A DNA stretch of 64,000 nucleotides from a virus (IMGVR_UViG_3300032782_000004), one strand, 5' to 3'; counted from the first letter of the stretch, positions 12,322 through 60,533 are shown. Notes: generated from the letters alone by a model not told the origin. Numbers and translations: made by a program.

Positions 12322-13503
12322 CTACTTGATGCTCGGATAAAGCAGATCGAGGAGCGTTGGAGCTCGAGCGAGTCCCGTTTGATCGGGCGCGCCGCTCATT
12401 CCGACGAAATCACCCTCGCCACGCTCTTTCGCTTCTTGTCCCGGCTCTACCCACCATTCGCGCGCGTGCGGCGGGACCCGCCCGATCGGCAGCTTCGTCG
12501 TGCCGTCCATTTTCACCCAGTCGCCGAGCTCGTCTTCGAAGGCGATGAACACGTGCGACGGCACGTCGTAGGGCTCGTGGTGACTGCTGCCGATGATCAT
12601 CGCGGCGATTCCGATCGACATCATCGCTGCGGCAAGTGTGATGGACATATCGTCGCAGTTGGAGACGGTTACGTCATGCTCTGGCAAATAGACGTAGCGA
12701 TCATCGGTCGAAATGTCCCAGCAAGAAACTCGTCCGACAGAACGTTCGATCGCCTTGACGGCGGCAGATGTGCCTAGCTTCTCTCGTTGCCCGATACGCC
12801 ACAGCGGAAACTTCCCCGCGCCGCCGTGCTCCATGCTAGTCGCTATGCGTTTTGGTTGAAGCAGGACATCGCCTTCACGAAGCTCCTCGACGAGAATTCG
12901 ATCGAAACTTTCTAGACGCTTGTACGCGGGTTGACATTGGACTTGATCGCAGCGGCCACCGTGCTTGCACTGGCCCACGTAGACCTTGTGGTTTTTCGTC
13001 AAATAGACGGTCGAACCGGTAGTGAGGTCGATCGCATCTACGTCAAGTTTACCCTTCGCCCATTTTTGCGTGATGGTCGACCATCGGTCTTTACCCCAGA
13101 TGCGTTCGCCTACTTTGATTTTCTCGATCGGAACGAATTCGAAGTCATCTCGAAGTAAAAGCGTCCTTTCCGGAAAACAGTCGCCGCCGATGATGCAAAG
13201 TCCACCCTCGTCGAGGCACAACGTCTGTTCGGGCGTTGCCATGAACTCGCCCATCATCGGATCGGCGATGTACGGCACTTTCTGCCTGAACGCGTCGAGT
13301 ATGGCTTGCGCTTTCTCGCGGTGCCCTTTCCGCGAAGCGCCGGCCTTGTCGAGGACCTGCGTCACCCAAGCACGGAGTCGCGGGCTCATGCGCCCCTTGA
13401 ACGCGCGCTCGGCGACTTCCTTCAAAGACAGCTTCGCGCCTTTGCCTCCAGCCGGATGCGGACGAGTATCGGTGCGTACGTTCTCTACGGGTTTGTCGAT
13501 CAT
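12322..13503 (-). CDS. transglutaminase-like cysteine peptidase interrupted by a mini-intein (Hint domain)
   Basis: ATG at 13501-13503 overlaps (ATGA) the stop of the 13500..14597 gene. After excising residues 103-282 the product reads ...EGGL-CDDMSITLAAAMMSIGI, i.e. a G-x-C-x-D-x-S TGase catalytic motif. Downstream HVFIAFE...GDWVKMD matches the His/Asp motifs. The listed 737-aa ORF upstream of 13503 is an out-of-frame artefact. Confidence 0.55.
   Translation of the reverse strand: MIDKPVENVRTDTRPHPAGGKGAKLSLKEVAERAFKGRMSPRLRAWVTQVLDKAGASRKGHREKAQAILDAFRQKVPYIADPMMGEFMATPEQTLCLDEGGLCIIGGDCFPERTLLLRDDFEFVPIEKIKVGERIWGKDRWSTITQKWAKGKLDVDAIDLTTGSTVYLTKNHKVYVGQCKHGGRCDQVQCQPAYKRLESFDRILVEELREGDVLLQPKRIATSMEHGGAGKFPLWRIGQREKLGTSAAVKAIERSVGRVSCWDISTDDRYVYLPEHDVTVSNCDDMSITLAAAMMSIGIAAMIIGSSHHEPYDVPSHVFIAFEDELGDWVKMDGTTKLPIGRVPPHAREWWVEPGQEAKERGEGDFVGMSGAPDQTGLARAPTLLDLLYPSIK
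12658..13197 (-). other. mini-intein (Hint domain, no endonuclease) inserted at the catalytic Cys of the TGase-like peptidase
   Basis: Begins Cys (CIIGGDCFPERTLL). Contains a TxxH-like block (VYLTKNHKVYV). Ends ...VYLPEHDVTVSN followed by +1 Cys. About 180 aa. Confidence 0.45.
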
Positions 13504-14597
13504 CGTCGTTTTCGTTTTCGCTTGCGTGTAGCGAGATAGACGACGCCGCCGAGTGCGCCGGCTCCAATCAATCCGATGCTCGCCACCGCGGCGGTGCTGA
13601 GTTCCGTTTTTTGCGGCGGCTTCACGGCTACGAGGGGCGGGGGCGCTTGAGGGGGCAGTGCGTTCGGCAGCGTTGACGGTAGCGGCGCATGCGTCGCGCA
13701 CGCGGCGGGCGCGGGCGCTCCGAGCACCTTCGTGAGCGCGGTTGCCGTCGCCTGCTCGTAATTGCCGGTATCGACGGGGACAGCGGGGGTTTGCGACGAA
13801 TTCCACGCCGTCTTGAACGCGTGCACGGTCGTGTTGACGAGTGTTCCTGATTGCGCGACCGATTGGCAGTAGTTCGGATCGGCGCCAATGGCGCTGGCCG
13901 CCGCTTGCGCGGTAGTCGAGATGTTCCACGGGAACGTGTCGGTGCTCGCCGGGAGCGGCTGTTCGCCCGCGTCGCCGTAGAACGCTTGAAGCGCGACGCG
14001 CGCGCTCGCGATCGCGGACGACAGCGAATTTTGCACATCGAGGCGCGCTTGAGTCACCGCCGTCTGATCGCCGGCTGTGATCGCCGCGATCAAATCGGTG
14101 TTGCGCTTGAGAGCCGTTGCGGTGCGATTTTGCACGTCTTCCGCGCTCGCCGTCGCGACGGTGTTGGATCCGCTGGCGGCTTCCTTGACGGAGGCGTCGA
14201 TGGTCGTGACGGTGTCCGGCACCGCCGCCGCAAACGATTGATCGTCCATGGACGAAAGCGTCCCGACCAGCATCGTCGATTGATCGAGCGTCGCGTAGTC
14301 GCCGAGGATCCCCGCTGCCGCGGCGCCGAGCATCGACGGCGTCACGCCGTCGGCGTATGGAAGTGCTACGAAATACGCTTTGGGGCGCATGTCGAGGCTG
14401 CCATCGAACCACTTCGACGGCAGATTCAGCGTCTCGCCGGCGACGAGCGACTTGAAAGAAGCAAAACCGTTCGGATAGACGACCGATCCCTTGTGCGGAT
14501 TCGCGTGCACCAGATCGATGGCGCACTTCGGGCATCCGGCAAATTCGATTGCGATCTTTGCCGGGCTGTCGCCGGGCCGAACGACGTACGATCTCAT
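13500..14597 (-). CDS. LysM-like N-terminal domain protein with C-terminal TM anchor and KRKRKRR tail
   Basis: N-terminus YVVRPGDSPAKIAIEF...DLVHANP...LVAGETLNLP is LysM-like. C-terminus IGLIGAGALGGVVYLATRKRKRKRR. Paralogous architecture to 4693..5832. Confidence 0.5.
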   Translation of the reverse strand: MRSYVVRPGDSPAKIAIEFAGCPKCAIDLVHANPHKGSVVYPNGFASFKSLVAGETLNLPSKWFDGSLDMRPKAYFVALPYADGVTPSMLGAAAAGILGDYATLDQSTMLVGTLSSMDDQSFAAAVPDTVTTIDASVKEAASGSNTVATASAEDVQNRTATALKRNTDLIAAITAGDQTAVTQARLDVQNSLSSAIASARVALQAFYGDAGEQPLPASTDTFPWNISTTAQAAASAIGADPNYCQSVAQSGTLVNTTVHAFKTAWNSSQTPAVPVDTGNYEQATATALTKVLGAPAPAACATHAPLPSTLPNALPPQAPPPLVAVKPPQKTELSTAAVASIGLIGAGALGGVVYLATRKRKRKRR

Positions 14598-35227: not shown

Positions 35228-36549
<1,322 letters not shown>

Positions 36550-36550
<1 letters not shown>

Positions 36551-39591: not shown

Positions 39592-39802
39592 TTGCGGTCG
39601 TCATGGAGGCTTGACGATCGACATCCATCTACGACCGCGACGTGCTCGCAGTTCTGACAATTCGACCGCTGCTTGACGGTCCTTCATCCATCGCAACGCC
39701 TGTTAGAAACGATTTGGTCTTCCGACTGATAATCGTCGTCTGTCACGGCACTTCTTGCAGGCCACCCGACGAGGAGATTCACGTCGCCTTTCGCCGCCTC
39801 GG

Positions 39803-40344
39803 CTGATGATCGTCATCCGTCACGGCGTCTTCTACGAGAAAAGCCCCACCGACGTCTTCGCCTCCGAGGGGGTTTGACGATCGCCATCCGTCACAGCGTC
39901 TCCCGCGAGTCGTGAATTCGGCGAGATGGGCGGCGTCAAACGTGGTCTGACGATCGCCATCCGTCACAGCGTCTCCCGCGAGCGCGGGAACGCCGCCGTA
40001 TTCGGCCCCGCACAGGATCTGACGATCGCCATCCGTCACAGCGTCTCCCGCGAGCACGCAAGCGAAAACGAAAACGACGATGATCGACACTGACGATCGC
40101 CATCCGTCACAGCGTCTCCCGCGAGGTTGCGAATCTCCATTGAGATTGTTGGAGATGGAGCTACTGACGATCGCCATCCGTCACAGCGTCTCCCGCGAGT
40201 CGGGGGGCTTGCGGCGCGAGGAGGACCCGTCCTTCGCTGACGATCGCCATCCGTCACAGCGTCTCCCGCGAGCGCGGGAACGCCGCCGTATTCGGCCCCG
40301 CACAGGATCTGACGATCGCCATCCGTCACAGCGTCTCCCGCGAG
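39803..40344. CRISPR. CRISPR array: eight 36-bp repeats (first degenerate) with seven 35-38-bp spacers. Further decayed repeat remnants at 39726-39761 and ~39611-39650.
   Basis: Repeat CTGACGATCGCCATCCGTCACAGCGTCTCCCGCGAG at 39874, 39947, 40019, 40090, 40164, 40237 and 40309; degenerate copy at 39803. Spacers at 39839-39873, 39910-39946, 39983-40018, 40055-40089, 40126-40163, 40200-40236 and 40273-40308. Repeat decay toward low coordinates implies the leader lies on the cas-gene side, so transcription is probably on the minus strand. Confidence 0.85.
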
Positions 40345-42203
40345 GCGTCGTGTAGAAAGCCGCTGACTTCGACCTCTTGCACGTCGCTTTGCGAGCGGTT
40401 CCCCTCATCGGCTAGGGAACGAGCCGTATCTCCACGGAATTGCGGGGAACCGTTCTTTGCGGCACCGAGCCGCTCGATCTCTGAGACAGGCGTCGTGATG
40501 GATGAAGATCGGCCACGCTGAACGTGGCGCTCCGGGGGATCCCCGGTTGCCGGACCGATACGGGGCCGTGAGGGAGAGTTGCCTCGCCCTCCGTGCCGTC
40601 CGTTTGTCACGGCCGTTGTCCCCCTTTCGGGGGGTTTCGAACCCGCGCTCCGCGGGCCCGCTTCGCCGGTATCGCTACCGGAAGAGTATTGTAAAAGGTT
40701 TGCCGCGGCGTTGTCGTCACGGTCGTCGATGTGCTCGCAAGAAGGGCACTGGAAATTCGGATATCCAGGCGAAGTCTCGCGCACGGTTAGGCACAACGCG
40801 CAGCGCTTTGTTACCGGCTCGTCTTGAGGCGCTTCCTCGAGACGGCCGCCGATCCATTTCATCTTATAAGCCACACGACGGCGAACATCGCCCATACGCG
40901 CGGCGTGGACCATCGGCGCCAAGCGATTGCGCGTTTGGGCGTCGTTCGTGAGGTTGCGCGAGAGCATAGAATGCACCGAACCGGCTGGGCGCATGCGTAC
41001 GATTTCGACGCCGGTGTCGACAATCTGCCGAACGCTCTTGCCTACGATGTCGTCTCGAAGATCGGTGATCCGCGCGTGATAGTGCGCAACGCGCCGCTTG
41101 GCTTCGAAAAAACCGGCGCTCTGGGCACGCGTCGCAATGCCCGCTCGATAGCGTCGCGCCATCCGACGCTCCCACAGCTTTCGGAGACGCTCGAACCGCG
41201 CGATGCGATCGTCGTCGCGGAGGCCAAGATGGCGGATGTTCGTCGAGCGTTCGCCTTGCGTCGCGACGGATAGGTTCACGACGCCGACCTCGACTCCAGC
41301 CACTCGGCCTTTCACGCGCGGTACCGGACGATCTCGCAGAGCGCGACCGGGCCCTCGTGCTTGCGGCGTCGGATCGGGTACTTCCGCTCGTAGCGCGATG
41401 TACCAGCGGCCGTCTCTCTCTGAGAGACCGAGAGCGATCGCTTTGCCGCCGTAGGGAAAGTGATGCGATTTCTCTTGCGTGACGGGCAAGTAATCACGCT
41501 CTTTCAAGACAACTTCGCCGATCCCCGGGATCGTCACGGTCCGTGACGTGATGCGGATCGGGTTCGGCTGGTCAACGTGGTAAGCCGCGTGTCGCCGGCC
41601 GCGAAAACGGGGGCGTCCCGCGCGCTCGTACCGCCCGGCTTTGATATGTTCGAAGAAATGCTTCCAGCCGTCCTCGACGTCGATAACGGCTTCGCGAATC
41701 GCGAACGAGGAGAGCTCGGTGAGCCAGCCGAACCGCTCCGGCTGTTCGTCGCGTACGAAGGCGACCTGGGAATACCAGTCGATCGACGTGGCGGCAAAAT
41801 CCGGGATCGCAGCGCCGGATGCGGGCCGGTAACGCACACGCTTTTGCGGCGTCCAGGCGACCGACGCGTGTTGACCAAAAAGCGCCAAAAGCCCGACGAC
41901 GACGGCGGCGCCGAGAGTCACCTGCGGCGCATCCTGCTCGATACGAGGCGTACGGACGTCGACCGGCGCGCCACGAGTGAGCGCAGCCAAAGCGTAGCCG
42001 AGCATGCACGCCGCTTCGCCGCCGGCGCAGTCATGTCCGGCGAGAGCGCGCGCGCCGCGCGCAATGCCGCGAGCGGCGTCGAGCTCGATCCAACGCTCGA
42101 GTACCCAGTTGTGCGCGACGCGAGCGCCAGCGACGTGTTTCGCGAGCGCACGCCGCTGTTCAGCGGTCGGATCAATCTCGGTCTTGTACGCGCGAAGGAT
42201 CAT
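40326..42203 (-). CDS. TnpB/Cas12-like RuvC-domain RNA-guided effector (compact type V CRISPR effector candidate)
   Basis: N-terminus MILRAYKTEIDPTAEQRRALAKHVAGARVAHNWVLERW is typical of OrfB_IS605/TnpB. RuvC-I-like GVEVGVVNLSVAT (Glu in place of Asp), RuvC-II-like TGVEIVRM, zinc finger CALC...CPSC, RuvC-III DDRDDNAAANL. ~130-aa low-complexity C-terminal tail. The ORF terminates inside the leader-proximal CRISPR repeat. Confidence 0.7.
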   Translation of the reverse strand: MILRAYKTEIDPTAEQRRALAKHVAGARVAHNWVLERWIELDAARGIARGARALAGHDCAGGEAACMLGYALAALTRGAPVDVRTPRIEQDAPQVTLGAAVVVGLLALFGQHASVAWTPQKRVRYRPASGAAIPDFAATSIDWYSQVAFVRDEQPERFGWLTELSSFAIREAVIDVEDGWKHFFEHIKAGRYERAGRPRFRGRRHAAYHVDQPNPIRITSRTVTIPGIGEVVLKERDYLPVTQEKSHHFPYGGKAIALGLSERDGRWYIALRAEVPDPTPQARGPGRALRDRPVPRVKGRVAGVEVGVVNLSVATQGERSTNIRHLGLRDDDRIARFERLRKLWERRMARRYRAGIATRAQSAGFFEAKRRVAHYHARITDLRDDIVGKSVRQIVDTGVEIVRMRPAGSVHSMLSRNLTNDAQTRNRLAPMVHAARMGDVRRRVAYKMKWIGGRLEEAPQDEPVTKRCALCLTVRETSPGYPNFQCPSCEHIDDRDDNAAANLLQYSSGSDTGEAGPRSAGSKPPERGTTAVTNGRHGGRGNSPSRPRIGPATGDPPERHVQRGRSSSITTPVSEIERLGAAKNGSPQFRGDTARSLADEGNRSQSDVQEVEVSGFLHDASRETL

Positions 42204-42457
42204 TTTACGGCTCGAATGTTACGGCAGTCGGGGCACTCGTTTGGGACGGTAAGTAAGACCATCCTATTTCGATGCGGGAGAACTTCGACAGTCGGATTAA
42301 CCAGATCGTCTTGAAGCACAAATTCGGCATTGCAATCGACGCAAATGATCTTGATCTTGAAGTTCAGCCGAGCCGTTTTCGGGTTCCCGCGTGTCACTTT
42401 GAATCTTCGTTCGGCTCGAACTTGCCGTTTCGAAATCGTCCAGTCTGAACCCCCCAC
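42200..42457 (-). CDS. small zinc-ribbon protein, translationally coupled upstream of the Cas12-like gene
   Basis: 85 aa. CVDCNAEF...CPDC. Its stop overlaps the start of the Cas12-like ORF (4-nt overlap). Confidence 0.4.
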   Translation of the reverse strand: MGGSDWTISKRQVRAERRFKVTRGNPKTARLNFKIKIICVDCNAEFVLQDDLVNPTVEVLPHRNRMVLLTVPNECPDCRNIRAVK

Positions 42458-53856: not shown

Positions 53857-54239
53857 TGGCCCGCATGAGCGACGATGAGATTTCAGAACTCGCCGAGGCG
53901 CTGGAAAACGCGTGTCGTGCGTTCGAACGAATGGGCGGGTGCATCACGAGCGCGCACATGACCTTTGGCCGGTGCCCAATTGGAGCGCTGCTCAGACGAA
54001 TCGGTGACCCGCATCCGTCCGGGGATGTAGCGGCGAAGCTCCTCAAGATCGATCCAGGCGCCGCGTGGTCGTTCATGGCCGGGTTCGATGGCCGTAATGA
54101 ACCCGATTCCGATCGCCGCCTCTTCCAGCTCGGTCGACTCTTCCGCGAGCAGTACGATCCCGATCGCCACCAGCCATCGAAGCAGCACGCCCGCACAGCG
54201 GCGAAGCGGAAAGCGAAAGGTGGAGGTGCCCCGGCATGA
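53857..54239 (+). CDS. hypothetical protein
   Basis: Internal start MARMSDDEISELAEALENACRAF. Confidence 0.3.
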
Positions 54240-55396
54240 ACCTTCAACCTTCAGCCTCTCGCACGGCGTTGCTTCTCGCATGCCCTCGCCCGTTCGACCC
54301 CGAACTCGACGTCGAGCTCGAAGAACCGGGCGAGCCAGCGCGTTACGGCAGCGCCTTCCACCAAGTGATCGCAGCGTGCCTTCGAGGATCAGCCAAAAAA
54401 CCGCTCGAGAAATCGATCGCTGCATATACACGCGAGATCAACCGGGCTACGAAGAAGTTCGACGTCGTCGCCGCCGCGCAAGAACTCGCCGGACACGTCA
54501 AAAGCAGTGTGCAAGTGCTTCGAAAATGGCTCGCACGCGAAAATCTAATCGTGCAGCAAGTCGAAACAGCACGCGCAGTGCACGCGACCGCGATAGGGGA
54601 TTGGACGAGGCGAACGATTTCGCCGCACGACGAGGACCATCGTTACGACGTTGTATCGGACGAAGTCCCAGGCACGATCGATCTAGTCGCCGCGAATTCC
54701 AAGCGGATCGTCGTCCTCGACCACAAGACAGGCGGCATCGACGAGAACTTCGCTCGTCCGAGCTTGATCCCTCAAATGCGTACGCTCGGATTGGTCGAAT
54801 TGGGTGCACGATCAGCCGTCATCGAGGTCGCTATTTTTCACGCTGACAGGCGCGGCTTGCCGATCGTCTACTCTGAAGAGTACGAACCTGTCGAACAGCA
54901 CAAACACGCCGCTGCGCTCGCCAAAGCTGTCTCGCGCATCGGTCAGGGATTTCTTCGGCCCGGCCCCTATTGTAGACGGTGCCCGGCACGCACCACTTGT
55001 CCGGCGCATGCGGCTGATCTCCTCGCCGAAAGCTCGGCGGCGCTCGTCCAATCGGCCAGTGCGCTCGCCGTAGAGCCGATCCAAGGGCCGTTGGCTCCGG
55101 CGACGGGCGCGAGCATCGAGCAGCGAGCCGGAGCGCTCTACGACCTTCTCAAGAAGTTTCGCGCGCTCGAGAAGGCAGGCTCAGAAGAAATCAAGCGCCT
55201 CGTCCGTGAAGGCGCTGTCATCGAAACGCGAACGGGCGAAGTGCTCGCCCTTCGAAAACAGAGCTACGAGACGCTTTCGAAAAAGAGCGTCATCGAAGCG
55301 CTCGGGAAAGTCGCCGGGGAGAGGGAGCTCGAGAAGCTTCGGAAAAAGGGCGCCCTGCGAGAAACGACACGAGAAATGCTCGTCCCGGAGAAGTGA
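54236..55396 (+). CDS. PD-(D/E)xK nuclease, Cas4/RecB-exonuclease-like, with C-terminal Cys cluster
   Basis: Motif II-III IDLVAANSKRIVVLDHKTGG. C-terminal CRRCPARTTCP plus N-terminal Cys form a Fe-S-type cluster. GGAGG RBS. Sits in the replication module, not adjacent to the CRISPR array. Confidence 0.6.
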   Translation: MNLQPSASRTALLLACPRPFDPELDVELEEPGEPARYGSAFHQVIAACLRGSAKKPLEKSIAAYTREINRATKKFDVVAAAQELAGHVKSSVQVLRKWLARENLIVQQVETARAVHATAIGDWTRRTISPHDEDHRYDVVSDEVPGTIDLVAANSKRIVVLDHKTGGIDENFARPSLIPQMRTLGLVELGARSAVIEVAIFHADRRGLPIVYSEEYEPVEQHKHAAALAKAVSRIGQGFLRPGPYCRRCPARTTCPAHAADLLAESSAALVQSASALAVEPIQGPLAPATGASIEQRAGALYDLLKKFRALEKAGSEEIKRLVREGAVIETRTGEVLALRKQSYETLSKKSVIEALGKVAGERELEKLRKKGALRETTREMLVPEK

Positions 55397-58637: not shown

Positions 58638-60533
58638 ATGCCGCAGGATGCGTCCGCGCTGGAGCGCGAGCCGTACGATCGCGTGTTGGTATTAGGCCAG
58701 CCGCATCACGGCAAAATGTTGCCGAATTCCGAACCTGTGCTTACGCCTACAGGTTGGAAACCGATGGGCCGCCTGATCGTCGGCGAATACGTGATTGGAT
58801 CTAACGGGTACCCGACAAAAGTCGTTGCCGTGTACCCGCACGACCACAAGCCGATCGTCAGGCTGACAATGGATTGTGGTGCGACAGCGCGTTGTGGCCT
58901 CGAGCATCTCTGGTTCACGACTACTCGCCACGAATTGCGACGCGGTAGTCGACGGTACCCTCCAGGCACGCCACATCACATGCGCGGTACGGTAAAGCAA
59001 GAGTTTGTGGGTTGGGGTGAAGGAAGCGTCAAGACAACCCAAGAGCTGATCGAGACGCTCGACGCACGTCACTATATACCGCGAGTCGCACCTATCATGT
59101 ATGCGGACGTGGAGCTCCCGCTCGATCCATATTTGCTCGGGCTCGTTTTAGGTGACGGCTCGATAACAGGTAGCGGGCAGATTACACTCACGAAACCGGA
59201 CGAAGACATACTCGACGCCTTCGAACGTGAGGTCAGAGCTGTAGGCGACACGCCTGTACGCTATGATAACACCAAGTGCAACTACGTTCGTGTGAACGGC
59301 ACGAATCTAAAGAAGTGTTTGAATGCGCTCAACTTGTACGGAGCACGTTCGTCGACGAAATTCATACCGGAAATATTCTTGCGAGCGCCGCCTAAAGCGC
59401 GCCTCGCGCTGTTGCGTGGTCTCTGTGATACCGATGGGCATGCTGTCAAGAACATCTGTAGCGTTGGTCACGCGCACGACGGTTTGAGCCTAACGGCTGA
59501 GTTCTCGACGACATCGGAGCGACTTTGCGATGGCGTTATCGAATTAGCGCGTTCGCTCGGCAGCCGTGCGAGGGCGCGCTACAAACCGGAGCCGTACTCT
59601 CAAAGCGGCCCCGGACAACCGGCTTGGTGCGTGGACATCTCTTTTGAAGACGGCACATGTCCATTTTCTCTCCCGCGAAAAGCAAATCTGTGGGTTGGCG
59701 GTGATCGTGAAAAGCTCTACCGCCAACGGCTCGAGAAGATCGAGCCGGCAGGCGAAGAGGAATGCACGTGTATTACAGTCGAAGCTGAAGACGGGTTGTT
59801 CGTAACTAACAACTACATCTTGACACACAATTCGACAAGTGTGGTCGCTAGTGCTGCCAAAGCATTCGGTATGGGCTACGTGATCAACTGCGGGAAAAAA
59901 ACGGGGCTCCTCGAGGCCGCTCGTCGATGCGACCGCTTCAAATGGGATCTCGTTCGCGACGAGGTTCAAATGGAGGACGCGCTCAAAGAAGCGCGTCGAG
60001 GCTCCAAAGACGGCGTTTACAAATGGGTCGCCATCGACGATTACAACCTCTACGCGAGCTGGCTTGAGGTCGCGCTCGAAGATCAAACGCGCAACGCCAA
60101 AGGCGAAGCCGACGGGCGCCGCTTTTGGCGCGAGTACCGAAAGCGGCTCGTAAACATCCTCGTTCGATGCTTCGACATCAAAGCGCATTTCTATTGCATC
60201 TCACATTACATCGAGACGGGCGGCGGCCTCATCGACGGCCAGACCGAGAAGGTTGGCGTCGACGTCGCGCCGCTTTTCGGCGGCGCCGCGCGCAAGGAAA
60301 TCCCCGGCATGTTCGCCGATATCGTGTTTATGGCGCCAAGCTCGAAGAGCCAAAAAGAGCGCAGCTTTTACATCAACCCGATCGGCGTCTACGGCCCGAG
60401 CTGTCTGAGCTTGCCTGAAACGCGCGAGATCGACGCCGACGTCGGCGCGCTCCACGACGCTTTCATGAAAGCCGGCAAATCCGGCAAGTCAGAGAATCAA
60501 AACACCGGCAAGCCCGGCTATCACAGGAAGTGA
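58638..60533 (+). CDS. AAA_24 (Sak4-like) RecA-fold ATPase interrupted in its P-loop by an intein carrying a LAGLIDADG homing endonuclease
   Basis: N-extein ...RVLVLGQPHHGK and C-extein STSVVASAAKAFGMGYVINCGKKTG...YKWVAIDDYNLY splice to a canonical Walker A GQPHHGKST plus a hhhhDD Walker B. Followed by a DUF669-like gene, as in Sak4 modules. Confidence 0.6.
   Translation: MPQDASALEREPYDRVLVLGQPHHGKMLPNSEPVLTPTGWKPMGRLIVGEYVIGSNGYPTKVVAVYPHDHKPIVRLTMDCGATARCGLEHLWFTTTRHELRRGSRRYPPGTPHHMRGTVKQEFVGWGEGSVKTTQELIETLDARHYIPRVAPIMYADVELPLDPYLLGLVLGDGSITGSGQITLTKPDEDILDAFEREVRAVGDTPVRYDNTKCNYVRVNGTNLKKCLNALNLYGARSSTKFIPEIFLRAPPKARLALLRGLCDTDGHAVKNICSVGHAHDGLSLTAEFSTTSERLCDGVIELARSLGSRARARYKPEPYSQSGPGQPAWCVDISFEDGTCPFSLPRKANLWVGGDREKLYRQRLEKIEPAGEEECTCITVEAEDGLFVTNNYILTHNSTSVVASAAKAFGMGYVINCGKKTGLLEAARRCDRFKWDLVRDEVQMEDALKEARRGSKDGVYKWVAIDDYNLYASWLEVALEDQTRNAKGEADGRRFWREYRKRLVNILVRCFDIKAHFYCISHYIETGGGLIDGQTEKVGVDVAPLFGGAARKEIPGMFADIVFMAPSSKSQKERSFYINPIGVYGPSCLSLPETREIDADVGALHDAFMKAGKSGKSENQNTGKPGYHRK
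58716..59831 (+). other. intein (372 aa) with LAGLIDADG endonuclease; class-3-like features
   Basis: Block A-like MLPNSEPVLTPTGW. Block B ...CGLEHLW (Trp at B12). LAGLIDADG motifs LLGLVLGDGSI and LALLRGLCDTDGH. Block F ECTCITV (Cys at F4). Block G ILTHN followed by +1 Ser. Position 1 is Met. Confidence 0.55.

Follow-up and report, generated by a model that had tools for sequence, protein, structure and literature searches.

Among the genes of a 64,000-nucleotide (nt) stretch of viral DNA, IMGVR_UViG_3300032782_000004 (the whole of which is referred to here as the window), is a compact locus at 39611–42457 in which an effector gene related to TnpB and Cas12 and a CRISPR array lie together on the minus strand. 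In our view this is probably a functional miniature CRISPR system encoded by the phage, type V-like and derived from TnpB; it would be of the V-U/TranC-like kind, with an RNA layout like that of Cas12n, and would most likely act by RNA-guided binding without cutting. To a sequence-only reading of the same DNA, which had described a minimal CRISPR locus with a single effector and is upheld here, our analysis adds a scaffold RNA embedded in the effector open reading frame (ORF), polarized spacer turnover at the level of strains, a clade-defining replacement of Glu by Arg in the RuvC site under purifying selection, and a spacer that matches the phage's own genome perfectly.

A TnpB-like effector

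The effector is encoded by an ORF of 625 codons (40326–42203, minus strand), found where the sequence-only reading had placed it, with its stop codon within the first repeat of the array. The TnpB N terminus claimed in that reading is borne out by profile searches: the 625-residue protein passes the NCBIfam model guided_TnpB (121 bits, cut-off 100) and matches the Pfam families HTH_OrfB_IS605 and Cas12f1-like_TNB. In the AlphaFold2 model, residues 1–510 have a predicted local distance difference test score (pLDDT) of ~85, and residues 510–625, with a score of ~33, are predicted to be disordered; the best Foldseek matches are the TnpB structures 8iaz and 8h1j (E = 1e-19). The features by which type V effectors are recognized are present, namely a RuvC domain split in three motifs, a zinc-finger/TNB insertion and a TnpB-like fold (Foldseek: TnpB and Cas12f). 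All four cysteines of the CxxC...CxxC zinc finger noted earlier were located, and the finger is invariant across the family. The three RuvC motif blocks described before are likewise in place, but two of the three catalytic residues in them are non-canonical (E305 for Asp and R405 for Glu).

Inserted into the REC region is a private hydrophobic segment of 29 residues (residues 96–124; 41832–41918, minus strand; TLGAAVVVGLLALFGQHASVAWTPQ...), which is modelled with low pLDDT and is absent from all homologues. Overlapping the effector start codon is an ORF of 85 residues (42200–42457, minus strand) with a zinc-ribbon-like CxxC...CxxC motif; the other family loci have no conserved gene of this kind upstream of their effectors, and we therefore set it outside the system.

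The array and its turnover

The array is real, far above chance expectation. Its 36-nt repeat (CTGACGATCGCCATCCGTCACAGCGTCTCCCGCGAG, plus strand) occurs in exact copies starting at 39947, 40019, 40090, 40164, 40237 and 40309; the copy at 39874 has one mismatch (position 1), that at 39803 has six, and further decayed repeats are found at 39726, with 13 mismatches, and at 39611, where the conserved 21-nt half has 5. The seven perfect 36-bp repeats and one degenerate copy counted in the sequence-only reading hold for a 35-nt unit; at 36 nt, six copies are exact, one has a single mismatch and at least three are decayed. The seven exact or near-exact repeats recur with a period of 71–74 nt, and the spacers measure, from low coordinates, 35, 37, 36, 35, 38, 37 and 36 nt, all within the 35–38 nt given before. 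Two of the spacers (39983–40018 and 40273–40308) are identical and lie within an exact 108-nt repeat–spacer–repeat duplication (39947–40054 = 40237–40344), which points to recombination within the array.

The genome carrying the locus is that of a very divergent phage of ~91 kb with ~62% G+C, and the same phage is present in several soil metagenome contigs at 99.9–100% identity. A 91.4-kb contig maps onto the window with wrap-around (L043/L046/L139/L140), which indicates that the ~91-kb genome is circular or circularly permuted. Together, the window and its flanks cover ~80 kb of the ~91 kb, that is, all of it except ~11 kb at contig positions ~39.6–50.8 kb. Among the called genes and ORFs of these ~80 kb there is no member of the Cas1, Cas2 or Cas4 families, which extends the earlier statement that no such gene adjoins the locus. 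The 'Cas4-like nuclease' of the replication module (54236–55396) proved to be a nuclease of that module, as claimed, but one of the PD-(D/E)XK/DUF2800 type and not of the Cas4 family.

Read along the effector strand, the order of the array is sp1–sp2–sp3–sp4–sp5 (= sp1)–sp6–sp7, followed by decayed units. The trailer is common to the window and the loci L001 and L046, and the effector-proximal ends differ. L001, whose effector is 99% identical, has sp7 and the decayed trailer in common with the window and carries three different effector-proximal spacers, and the array of the 99.9%-identical 91-kb strain consists of sp1 followed by sp7 only. In this strain the duplicated spacer, which the 108-nt duplication has put at array positions 1 and 5 of the window, is present in a single copy directly before the trailer. 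The loci L002 and L003 also have distal spacers in common and differ at the effector-proximal end. Array content thus differs, in a polarized manner, between strains that are 99–99.9% identical, and it changes on the timescale of strains without an adaptation gene in cis.

The decayed distal repeats, the distal spacers shared between strains and the strand-specific G–U pairs of the scaffold described below place the leader on the effector side and transcription on the effector strand. The sequence-only reading had arrived at the same orientation from a decayed trailer at low coordinates (39611–39838), a region in which the decayed copies at 39803, 39726 and 39611 indeed fall.

A scaffold RNA in the ORF tail

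Encoded in the last ~115 of the 625 codons is a scaffold RNA and not a conserved peptide. In an alignment of nine loci (alignment A2), which spans 350–390 nt from the RuvC-III motif to the end of repeat 1, the 79 local scaffold pairs are paired in 87% of cells, as against 34–42% when the partner is slid, and compensatory changes occur in 38 of them, a number reached by none of 500 shuffles. Between the hairpins lies an anti-repeat complementary to nearly the whole of the 36-nt repeat; the helix of the two is paired in 83% of cells (30–48% slid), with compensatory changes in 17 of 27 pairs (0 of 500 shuffles), and its arms covary locus by locus as the repeats diverge. Folding of the single sequence gives the same pairing (z = −3.0), and the many G–U pairs tie the helix to the effector strand. 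Over ~70 codons, the window ORF reads the conserved nucleotides of the tail in a codon phase other than that of six relatives, so that the tail is conserved as RNA and not as peptide.

Owing to the continuity of the scaffold with repeat 1, the scaffold, repeat 1 and spacer 1 would together form a single guide like the ωRNA (omegaRNA) of TnpB, with the anti-repeat pairing in cis. The repeats further downstream would pair with the same anti-repeat in trans, as a tracrRNA (trans-activating CRISPR RNA) does with a CRISPR RNA (crRNA).

The anti-repeat emerged only from the comparative alignment: a direct RNAduplex search of the repeat against the upstream region gave nothing better than shuffled repeats did. 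A hairpin in the 3' part of the repeat (TGACG...CGTCA covariation) was considered and dropped, as the anti-repeat pairing explains the same covariation and more. No Rfam family matches the scaffold or the window at the gathering or a permissive threshold.

The RuvC site

The catalytic triad of the window protein is E305–R405–D496; the canonical D–E–D is not present. Across the clade, the triads are E–R–D or E–R–E in the close and outer members and D–R–E in a distant branch, never D–E–D. The Arg at RuvC-II is invariant throughout this rare clade (P0024–P0037), which ends at a sharp boundary, the next-best relatives (P0039 onward) being canonical D–E–D TnpBs. At the position after the Arg, which corresponds to that of the D in 'EDL', members have E, D, G, A, N or P; the window protein has P406. 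Early alignments had set the register of the RuvC-II Glu at V410 and then at P406; both were replaced by R405 on the basis of profile alignments to ISFba1 TnpB and RdCas12n.

With such residues, canonical two-metal DNA cleavage would be lost or severely impaired. An invariant Arg for Glu, a Glu for Asp at RuvC-I and no carboxylate beside R405 make binding without cutting the most likely activity, and 'effector' probably does not equate to 'nuclease' here. The acids retained at positions I and III would leave room for residual or altered activity, RNA processing for example. The missing D–E–D is compatible with a type V assignment, since Cas12k, Cas12m and Cas12c, though inactive, are counted as type V too.

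A comparison of the folded core with that of L001 gives 14 synonymous and 2–3 non-synonymous differences, the mark of purifying selection, which together with the invariant zinc finger argues that the effector is not decaying. Of 135 highly conserved columns, 10 have another residue in the window protein (among them G490E, in the zinc knuckle), a count within the range that other divergent members show. These data bear on the possibility that the locus is a relic, with an inactivated effector, a degenerating array and no current function. Non-canonical catalytic residues, the 10 deviating columns taken with the private low-confidence insertion, and the decayed trailer repeats, the duplicated spacer and the shorter array found in the 91-kb strain would all suit a relic. 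Such an interpretation is nonetheless very improbable in view of the strong purifying selection on the core, an ORF that is intact and identical across several samples, the invariance of R405 and the zinc finger, the compensatory evolution of the scaffold, and an array whose seven leader-side repeats are essentially perfect and whose new spacers stand at the leader end.

The self-targeting spacer

Spacer 4 is identical at 35 of 35 positions to nucleotides 13494–13528 of the window. The wider 5' flank of this protospacer reads ...ACGGGTT and is T-rich, as is usual for the target-adjacent motifs (TAMs) of TnpB and the protospacer-adjacent motifs (PAMs) of Cas12. The protospacer covers the last 10 codons of a 365-residue ORF (13500–14597, minus strand) together with the overlapping ATG and first 3 codons of a 393-residue ORF (12322–13503, minus strand), and a crRNA carrying spacer 4 would be antisense to the mRNA of the latter from −25 to +10 around the start codon. 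All five strain contigs examined have the same protospacer and flank, and any strain with spacer 4 therefore targets itself. A match of this kind sits well with an effector that does not cut and poorly with an efficient nuclease.

The 393-residue ORF has weak Pfam matches to a Hint module (residues 107–222) and a transglutaminase core (residues 280–333), and could represent an intein within a protease-like late gene. No PHROG match was found for the genes around the spacer-4 target or around the locus, which leaves the target genes functionally vague.

One explanation of the match is a dedicated autoregulator, a natural form of CRISPR interference (CRISPRi), in which spacer 4 represses or times the 393-residue gene, either by blocking the DNA or as an antisense over the ribosome-binding window. 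The match is perfect and the protospacer conserved; the start codon is covered from −25 to +10 and in antisense, an arrangement expected for ~2–4% of random sites and orientations by a rough estimate; the RuvC site is remodelled; and prophage-encoded repressors derived from TnpB have a precedent in TldR. Set against this, spacer 4 is the only self-targeting spacer in the ~80 of 91 kb: no other spacer of the window or of L001 matches these ~80 kb, which include ~16 kb beyond the window ends, and no self-targets occur within 10 kb on either side of the other family loci. Strains that are 99–99.9% identical lack spacer 4 and carry other spacers instead, which would be unexpected for an essential guide, and the fast turnover of spacers resembles immunity or competition and not fixed regulation. 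A locus dedicated to autoregulation is thus an improbable explanation.

No other targets of the spacers were found. None of the 70 unique spacers of the family matches any of 50,697 INPHARED phage genomes, and none of the 47 of them that were compared with 72,556 PLSDB plasmids gave a match. An exact scan of IMG/VR with six spacers returned nothing or the arrays themselves only, and cross-matching of spacers among all collected loci gave no further match.

Binding or cutting

Several points weigh against binding without cutting. The RuvC-I and RuvC-III positions are acidic (D or E) in every one of the 26+ members, and D or E is retained directly after the Arg in ~60% of the clade; a rearranged active site or a nickase may be possible, and a survey in PNAS (PMC10691335) warns that altered TnpB sites can stay active. 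Of the phage's three array variants, one carries spacer 4 and two lack it, so that the match to the phage's own genome may be accidental. To judge from dCas12a, spacer 4 has the weaker of the two orientations as regards a block to elongation (the strand paired with the guide is the coding strand, and the polymerase meets the PAM-distal end first). A known target exists for 1 of the 70 family spacers, that target being the phage's own genome, so that one case underlies both the PAM and the natural targets. The candidate promoter of the scaffold is a consensus-scan match only.

The retained acids, the D or E after the Arg in many members, the warning of the survey and the patchy occurrence of spacer 4 would all fit an active nuclease with a rearranged E–R–D site, perhaps one that recruits another carboxylate. 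It would serve as a weapon against competitors in the way of Cas12j, Cas-lambda or CauTranC9, and phage-encoded compact type V nucleases are indeed known. The self-match would then be harmless because the real PAM is not GGGTT, or would be a recent deleterious acquisition caught in the metagenome. Yet the position of the catalytic Glu is an invariant Arg, and the acid next to it is the ancestral D of 'EDL', lost in ~40% of members including the window protein (R–P). The 5' flank of the protospacer is T-rich, as expected for TnpB and Cas12, and the genome bearing spacer 4 assembled cleanly and matches the other strain contigs at 99.995–100%. An active nuclease is accordingly a minority prospect, and binding without cutting is the activity that we favour.

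Family distribution

Homologues of the effector are rare. A search of 5.8 billion proteins returned only 26 clusters, and an exhaustive profile search of 1.84 billion representatives gave 6 core and ~14 outer-shell clusters, followed by a steep drop to generic TnpBs of ~400 residues. Every full-length member retrieved lies on a phage-like contig of 30–140 kb, among genes of replication and nucleotide metabolism, and is followed by an array with a ~72-nt period that starts at or inside the ORF stop codon. These phage-like contigs and the genes neighbouring the locus confirm the phage setting assumed in the sequence-only reading. The module of effector, ORF tail and array recurs in at least 10 independent loci, with arrays of 5–15 units, so that the pairing of a single TnpB/Cas12-like effector with an array, first noted in the window, extends to the family (loci L001–L004, L036, L037, L041, L059, L060, L065 and L066). 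A tail-less member of 490 residues on another phage (P0016; L039/L040, 10001–11473; triad E–R–E) has neither an RNA-bearing tail nor an array; it may be an orphan, or its RNA may be provided in trans.

An ordinary insertion sequence (IS) of the IS200/IS605 or IS607 type would explain the locus differently, as a TnpB with an ωRNA for homing and an 'array' that came about incidentally, by tandem duplication of the right end. The best matches in sequence and structure are canonical TnpBs, and the scaffold overlaps the 3' end of the ORF and abuts the first guide just as an ωRNA does. There is, however, no TnpA or other transposase among the neighbouring genes, the effector is single-copy in the window, and a scan for the family pattern in 185,579 representative prokaryotic genomes found no member, all of which argues against a mobile IS. 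Arrays of 5–15 units with unrelated spacers of 35–38 nt and strain-level turnover, and the loss of the catalytic Glu that homing cleavage needs, leave this explanation barely credible. The generic IS605 TnpB with intact ends that the sequence-only reading had named as its counter-hypothesis was likewise not borne out: the gene is single, TnpA is lacking and the association with the array is conserved.

A structural pattern of two consecutive repeats, searched for in cellular genomes, gave no arrays but dispersed single copies, mostly in Stenotrophomonas. The pattern GTGACG-N9-CGTCAG...GTGACG-N9-CGTCAG has many such dispersed single sites in Stenotrophomonas lacuserhaii and S. chelatiphaga (L048–L057), which are probably elements resembling repetitive extragenic palindromes, unrelated to the phage system.

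The phage genome

Coordinates of the features of the locus and of its self-target are collected in Table 1. The divergence of the phage is reflected in the searches of its genome. Nine large ORFs have no PHROG match, no tRNAs and no Rfam family were found in the window, and megablast of the window and the locus against 50,697 phage records gave no match.

In the replication region, a 631-residue ORF (58638–60533, plus strand) with a faint LAGLIDADG_3 signal may be a homing endonuclease or an intein-bearing gene. A 440-residue ORF (35228–36550, plus strand) without a Pfam or PHROG match ends in a C-terminal run of 13 Asp followed by a basic tail. Beyond the window start (L139, 14183–19598 and 23137–23585) are large glycosyltransferase/methyltransferase fusion genes (676 and 1,127 residues) and a collagen-like ORF adjoining a 1,194-residue gene that begins in the window. 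Beyond the window end, the same phage encodes a Ro60/TROVE and vWA protein (L140, 18978–20657); Ro60 orthologues normally work with small RNAs resembling Y RNA.

Table 1 Features of the locus and of the spacer-4 target (window coordinates; repeats and spacers in order of transcription)
Feature	Coordinates	Strand	Remarks
Effector folded core	40677–42203	−	Residues 1–509; TnpB-like WED/REC/RuvC/zinc finger
RuvC-I, E305	41289–41291	−	ISDra2 D191 and RdCas12n D287 align to E305
RuvC-II position, R405, then P406	40989–40991	−	Glu of ISFba1 TnpB (..itiEDLNV..) and RdCas12n E386 (GFEDLNV) align to R405
RuvC-III, D496	40716–40718	−	Asp in the close clade, Glu in other members
Zinc-finger cysteines C468, C471, C486, C489	40737–40802	−	
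ORF tail	40326–40676	−	Residues 510–625 and stop; predicted disordered; overlaps scaffold RNA; stop in repeat 1
Candidate internal sigma-70-like promoter	40688–40717	−	ACGACA, 18-nt spacer, TACAAT (−10 at 40693–40688); upstream of first hairpin
Scaffold (tracrRNA/ωRNA-like) RNA	40369–40681	−	~310 nt; series of conserved hairpins
Scaffold hairpins	40681–40666, 40660–40638, 40634–40620, 40613–40549, 40546–40532, 40528–40512, 40473–40459, 40448–40429, 40426–40409, 40394–40369	−	
Anti-repeat	40475–40511	−	CGATCTTCATCCATCACGACGCCTGTCTCAGAGATCG; pairs with nearly the whole 36-nt repeat
Active array	39874–40344	−	Seven repeats, six spacers
Repeats	40309–40344, 40237–40272, 40164–40199, 40090–40125, 40019–40054, 39947–39982, 39874–39909	−	
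sp1	40273–40308	−	
sp2	40200–40236	−	
sp3	40126–40163	−	
sp4 (spacer 4)	40055–40089	−	crRNA sense TGTCGATCATCGTCGTTTTCGTTTTCGCTTGCGTG; self-targeting
sp5	39983–40018	−	= sp1
sp6	39910–39946	−	
Trailer	39611–39873	−	Old spacer sp7 (39839–39873), then decayed repeats with decayed spacers between
Decayed trailer repeats	39803–39838, 39726–39761, ~39611–39646	−	
Spacer-4 protospacer	13494–13528	+	Plus strand is the non-target strand
Candidate PAM/TAM GGGTT	13489–13493	+	T-rich ...TT 5' of protospacer; single protospacer as basis

Discussion

The observations can be assembled into the following model. A single transcript direction, that of the minus strand, would yield the effector mRNA, the ~310-nt scaffold in its 3' tail and then the abutting array. 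The anti-repeat would engage repeat 1 in cis and the downstream repeats in trans, in each case leaving a spacer 3' of the repeat duplex as the guide, as in TnpB, Cas12f and Cas12n. The resulting ribonucleoprotein would recognize double-stranded DNA (dsDNA) beside a 5' T-rich motif, bind it without cutting and silence or block the target as Cas12m, Cas12c and TldR do; the remaining acidic residues of the RuvC site may have been kept for RNA processing. Candidate sources of new spacers are a host Cas1–Cas2 acting in trans and recombination between arrays. Most spacers are presumably aimed at competitors that have yet to be sequenced. Spacer 4 would target the junction of the phage's own late genes, where its presence may be tolerated, and possibly exploited, because binding is not lethal.

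A bolder interpretation, which we put forward only tentatively, is that of a viral CRISPRi system. The array would program a nuclease-dead binder derived from TnpB as a rewritable regulator of transcription or translation, with guides against rivals or the host as well as against late genes of the phage itself, and the Arg would be an adaptation for tight, non-cleaving binding in the R-loop.

Brought together in this locus are several of the steps from TnpB to Cas12, with a scaffold that still lies in the ORF and is fused to the first guide, yet serves a multi-spacer array that is changing. The array is actively changing on phage genomes in which no adaptation genes were found, which raises the testable question of how arrays without Cas1–Cas2 gain spacers. 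The clade brings a further, distinct and conserved form of the RuvC site, in which Arg takes the place of Glu and Asp and Glu are interchanged at the remaining two positions, and which is maintained under purifying selection; this remodelling suggests that type V effectors that only bind have arisen independently once more. The self-targeting spacer offers a concrete handle on whether phages use CRISPR guides on themselves, and a programmable DNA binder of ~510 residues with a defined guide architecture could be a compact scaffold for CRISPRi.

Comparison with known systems

Scored with the family profile, ISFba1 reaches 137 bits, ISDra2 130 bits, RdCas12n 95 bits, LaTranC 54 bits and Cas12m 20–31 bits; Cas12f, like LaTranC and Cas12m, is further removed than RdCas12n. 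The resemblance to hypercompact type V systems that the sequence-only reading had proposed holds for the TnpB-like effector, the array and the phage setting, but the closest architecture is that of Cas12n (V-U4) or TranC, not of Cas12f or Cas12j.

Canonical TnpBs of the IS200/IS605 group (ISDra2 and ISFba1) are the best matches to the effector in both sequence and fold. They have in common with it the N-terminal HTH_OrfB domain, the WED/REC/RuvC/zinc-finger layout, a scaffold that overlaps the 3' end of the ORF and a guide 3' of the scaffold. The window protein differs from them in a core that is ~100 residues larger (REC insertion) and in the replacement of the catalytic Glu by Arg, and its locus differs in having neither a transposase nor IS ends, in being single-copy and in carrying a multi-spacer array instead of a single flanking guide.

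Cas12n (V-U4/V-N; for example RdCas12n, PDB 9J09) is similar in many respects. It too is a compact effector close to TnpB with a CCCC zinc finger and a disordered C-terminal tail whose coding DNA holds a tracrRNA with an anti-repeat; in Cas12n this tracrRNA-containing tail is dispensable (PMC12216341; bioRxiv 10.64898/2026.03.27.714800). Repeats of ~36 nt, the lack of adaptation genes, and a guide RNA built of several stem-loops and a stem between anti-repeat and repeat, with a few bases left unpaired ahead of the spacer, are further likenesses, and RdCas12n is the best-scoring CRISPR-associated protein of solved structure, aligning over its full length. Sequence similarity is weak, however (E = 7e-5 with a single query), and canonical TnpBs score higher. 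RdCas12n has an intact D287/E386/D484 triad and cleaves DNA, unlike the window clade with its E–R–D or D–R–E. The PAM of Cas12n is 5'-AAN, and the single protospacer of the window system has 5'-GGGTT, one case being too few to define a PAM; the window scaffold is about twice as long (~310 as against 100–200 nt) and runs on into repeat 1; and the window family, unlike Cas12n, is seen on phage-like contigs only. A top match to the PADLOC model 'Cas12u4' was rejected as a sign of Cas12n membership, being uninformative: generic TnpBs score >300 bits on that model, on which the window protein scores 133.

TranC (Jin et al., Cell 2025; LaTranC, PDB 9JFQ) is a barely diverged TnpB-like protein linked to an array, with its ωRNA split into a tracr-like scaffold and a crRNA. 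The window system has the same combination of canonical TnpBs as nearest relatives with an array and an anti-repeat, but its scaffold is still fused to repeat 1, and both the ωRNA-like and the split mode are plausible. LaTranC is a distant match (54 bits; Foldseek E = 6e-10), the characterized TranC clades are active nucleases, and those examined are without the tracr-bearing unstructured tail. A phage-encoded TranC is known in CauTranC9 (bioRxiv 10.64898/2026.03.27.714800).

In the activity proposed here, crRNA-guided binding of dsDNA that silences without cutting, the nearest parallels are Cas12m (V-M) and Cas12c. Cas12m and Cas12c without DNase activity, as well as inactivated TnpBs, are known (PMC10691335; PMC13565253), and the Cas12m subtype shows a gradual erosion of its catalytic site. 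Both belong to unrelated lineages (for Cas12m structures, Foldseek E ~1e-10, template-modelling score ~0.38, profile 20–31 bits), and both are tracrRNA-independent, bacterial and not phage-encoded, with other substitutions in the catalytic site.

TldR proteins are likewise derived from TnpB, often prophage-borne and nuclease-inactive, and an adjacent guide RNA directs them to TAM-flanked sites, where they bind and repress transcription. TldRs are truncated at the C terminus and lack the zinc finger and RuvC-III. In the window protein both the zinc finger and the Asp of RuvC-III are preserved, and where a TldR has a single fixed, ωRNA-like guide directed at a promoter and no CRISPR array, the window system has a multi-spacer array whose guides are many and changing.

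A wider frame for these comparisons is given by the 2023 survey of TnpB and Cas12 (PNAS, PMC10691335), which described ~50 independent transitions from TnpB to Cas12 and 40 Cas12-U groups, 15 of them unrepresented in NCBI genomes and some with altered catalytic sites. The window clade may already be one of these Cas12-U groups.

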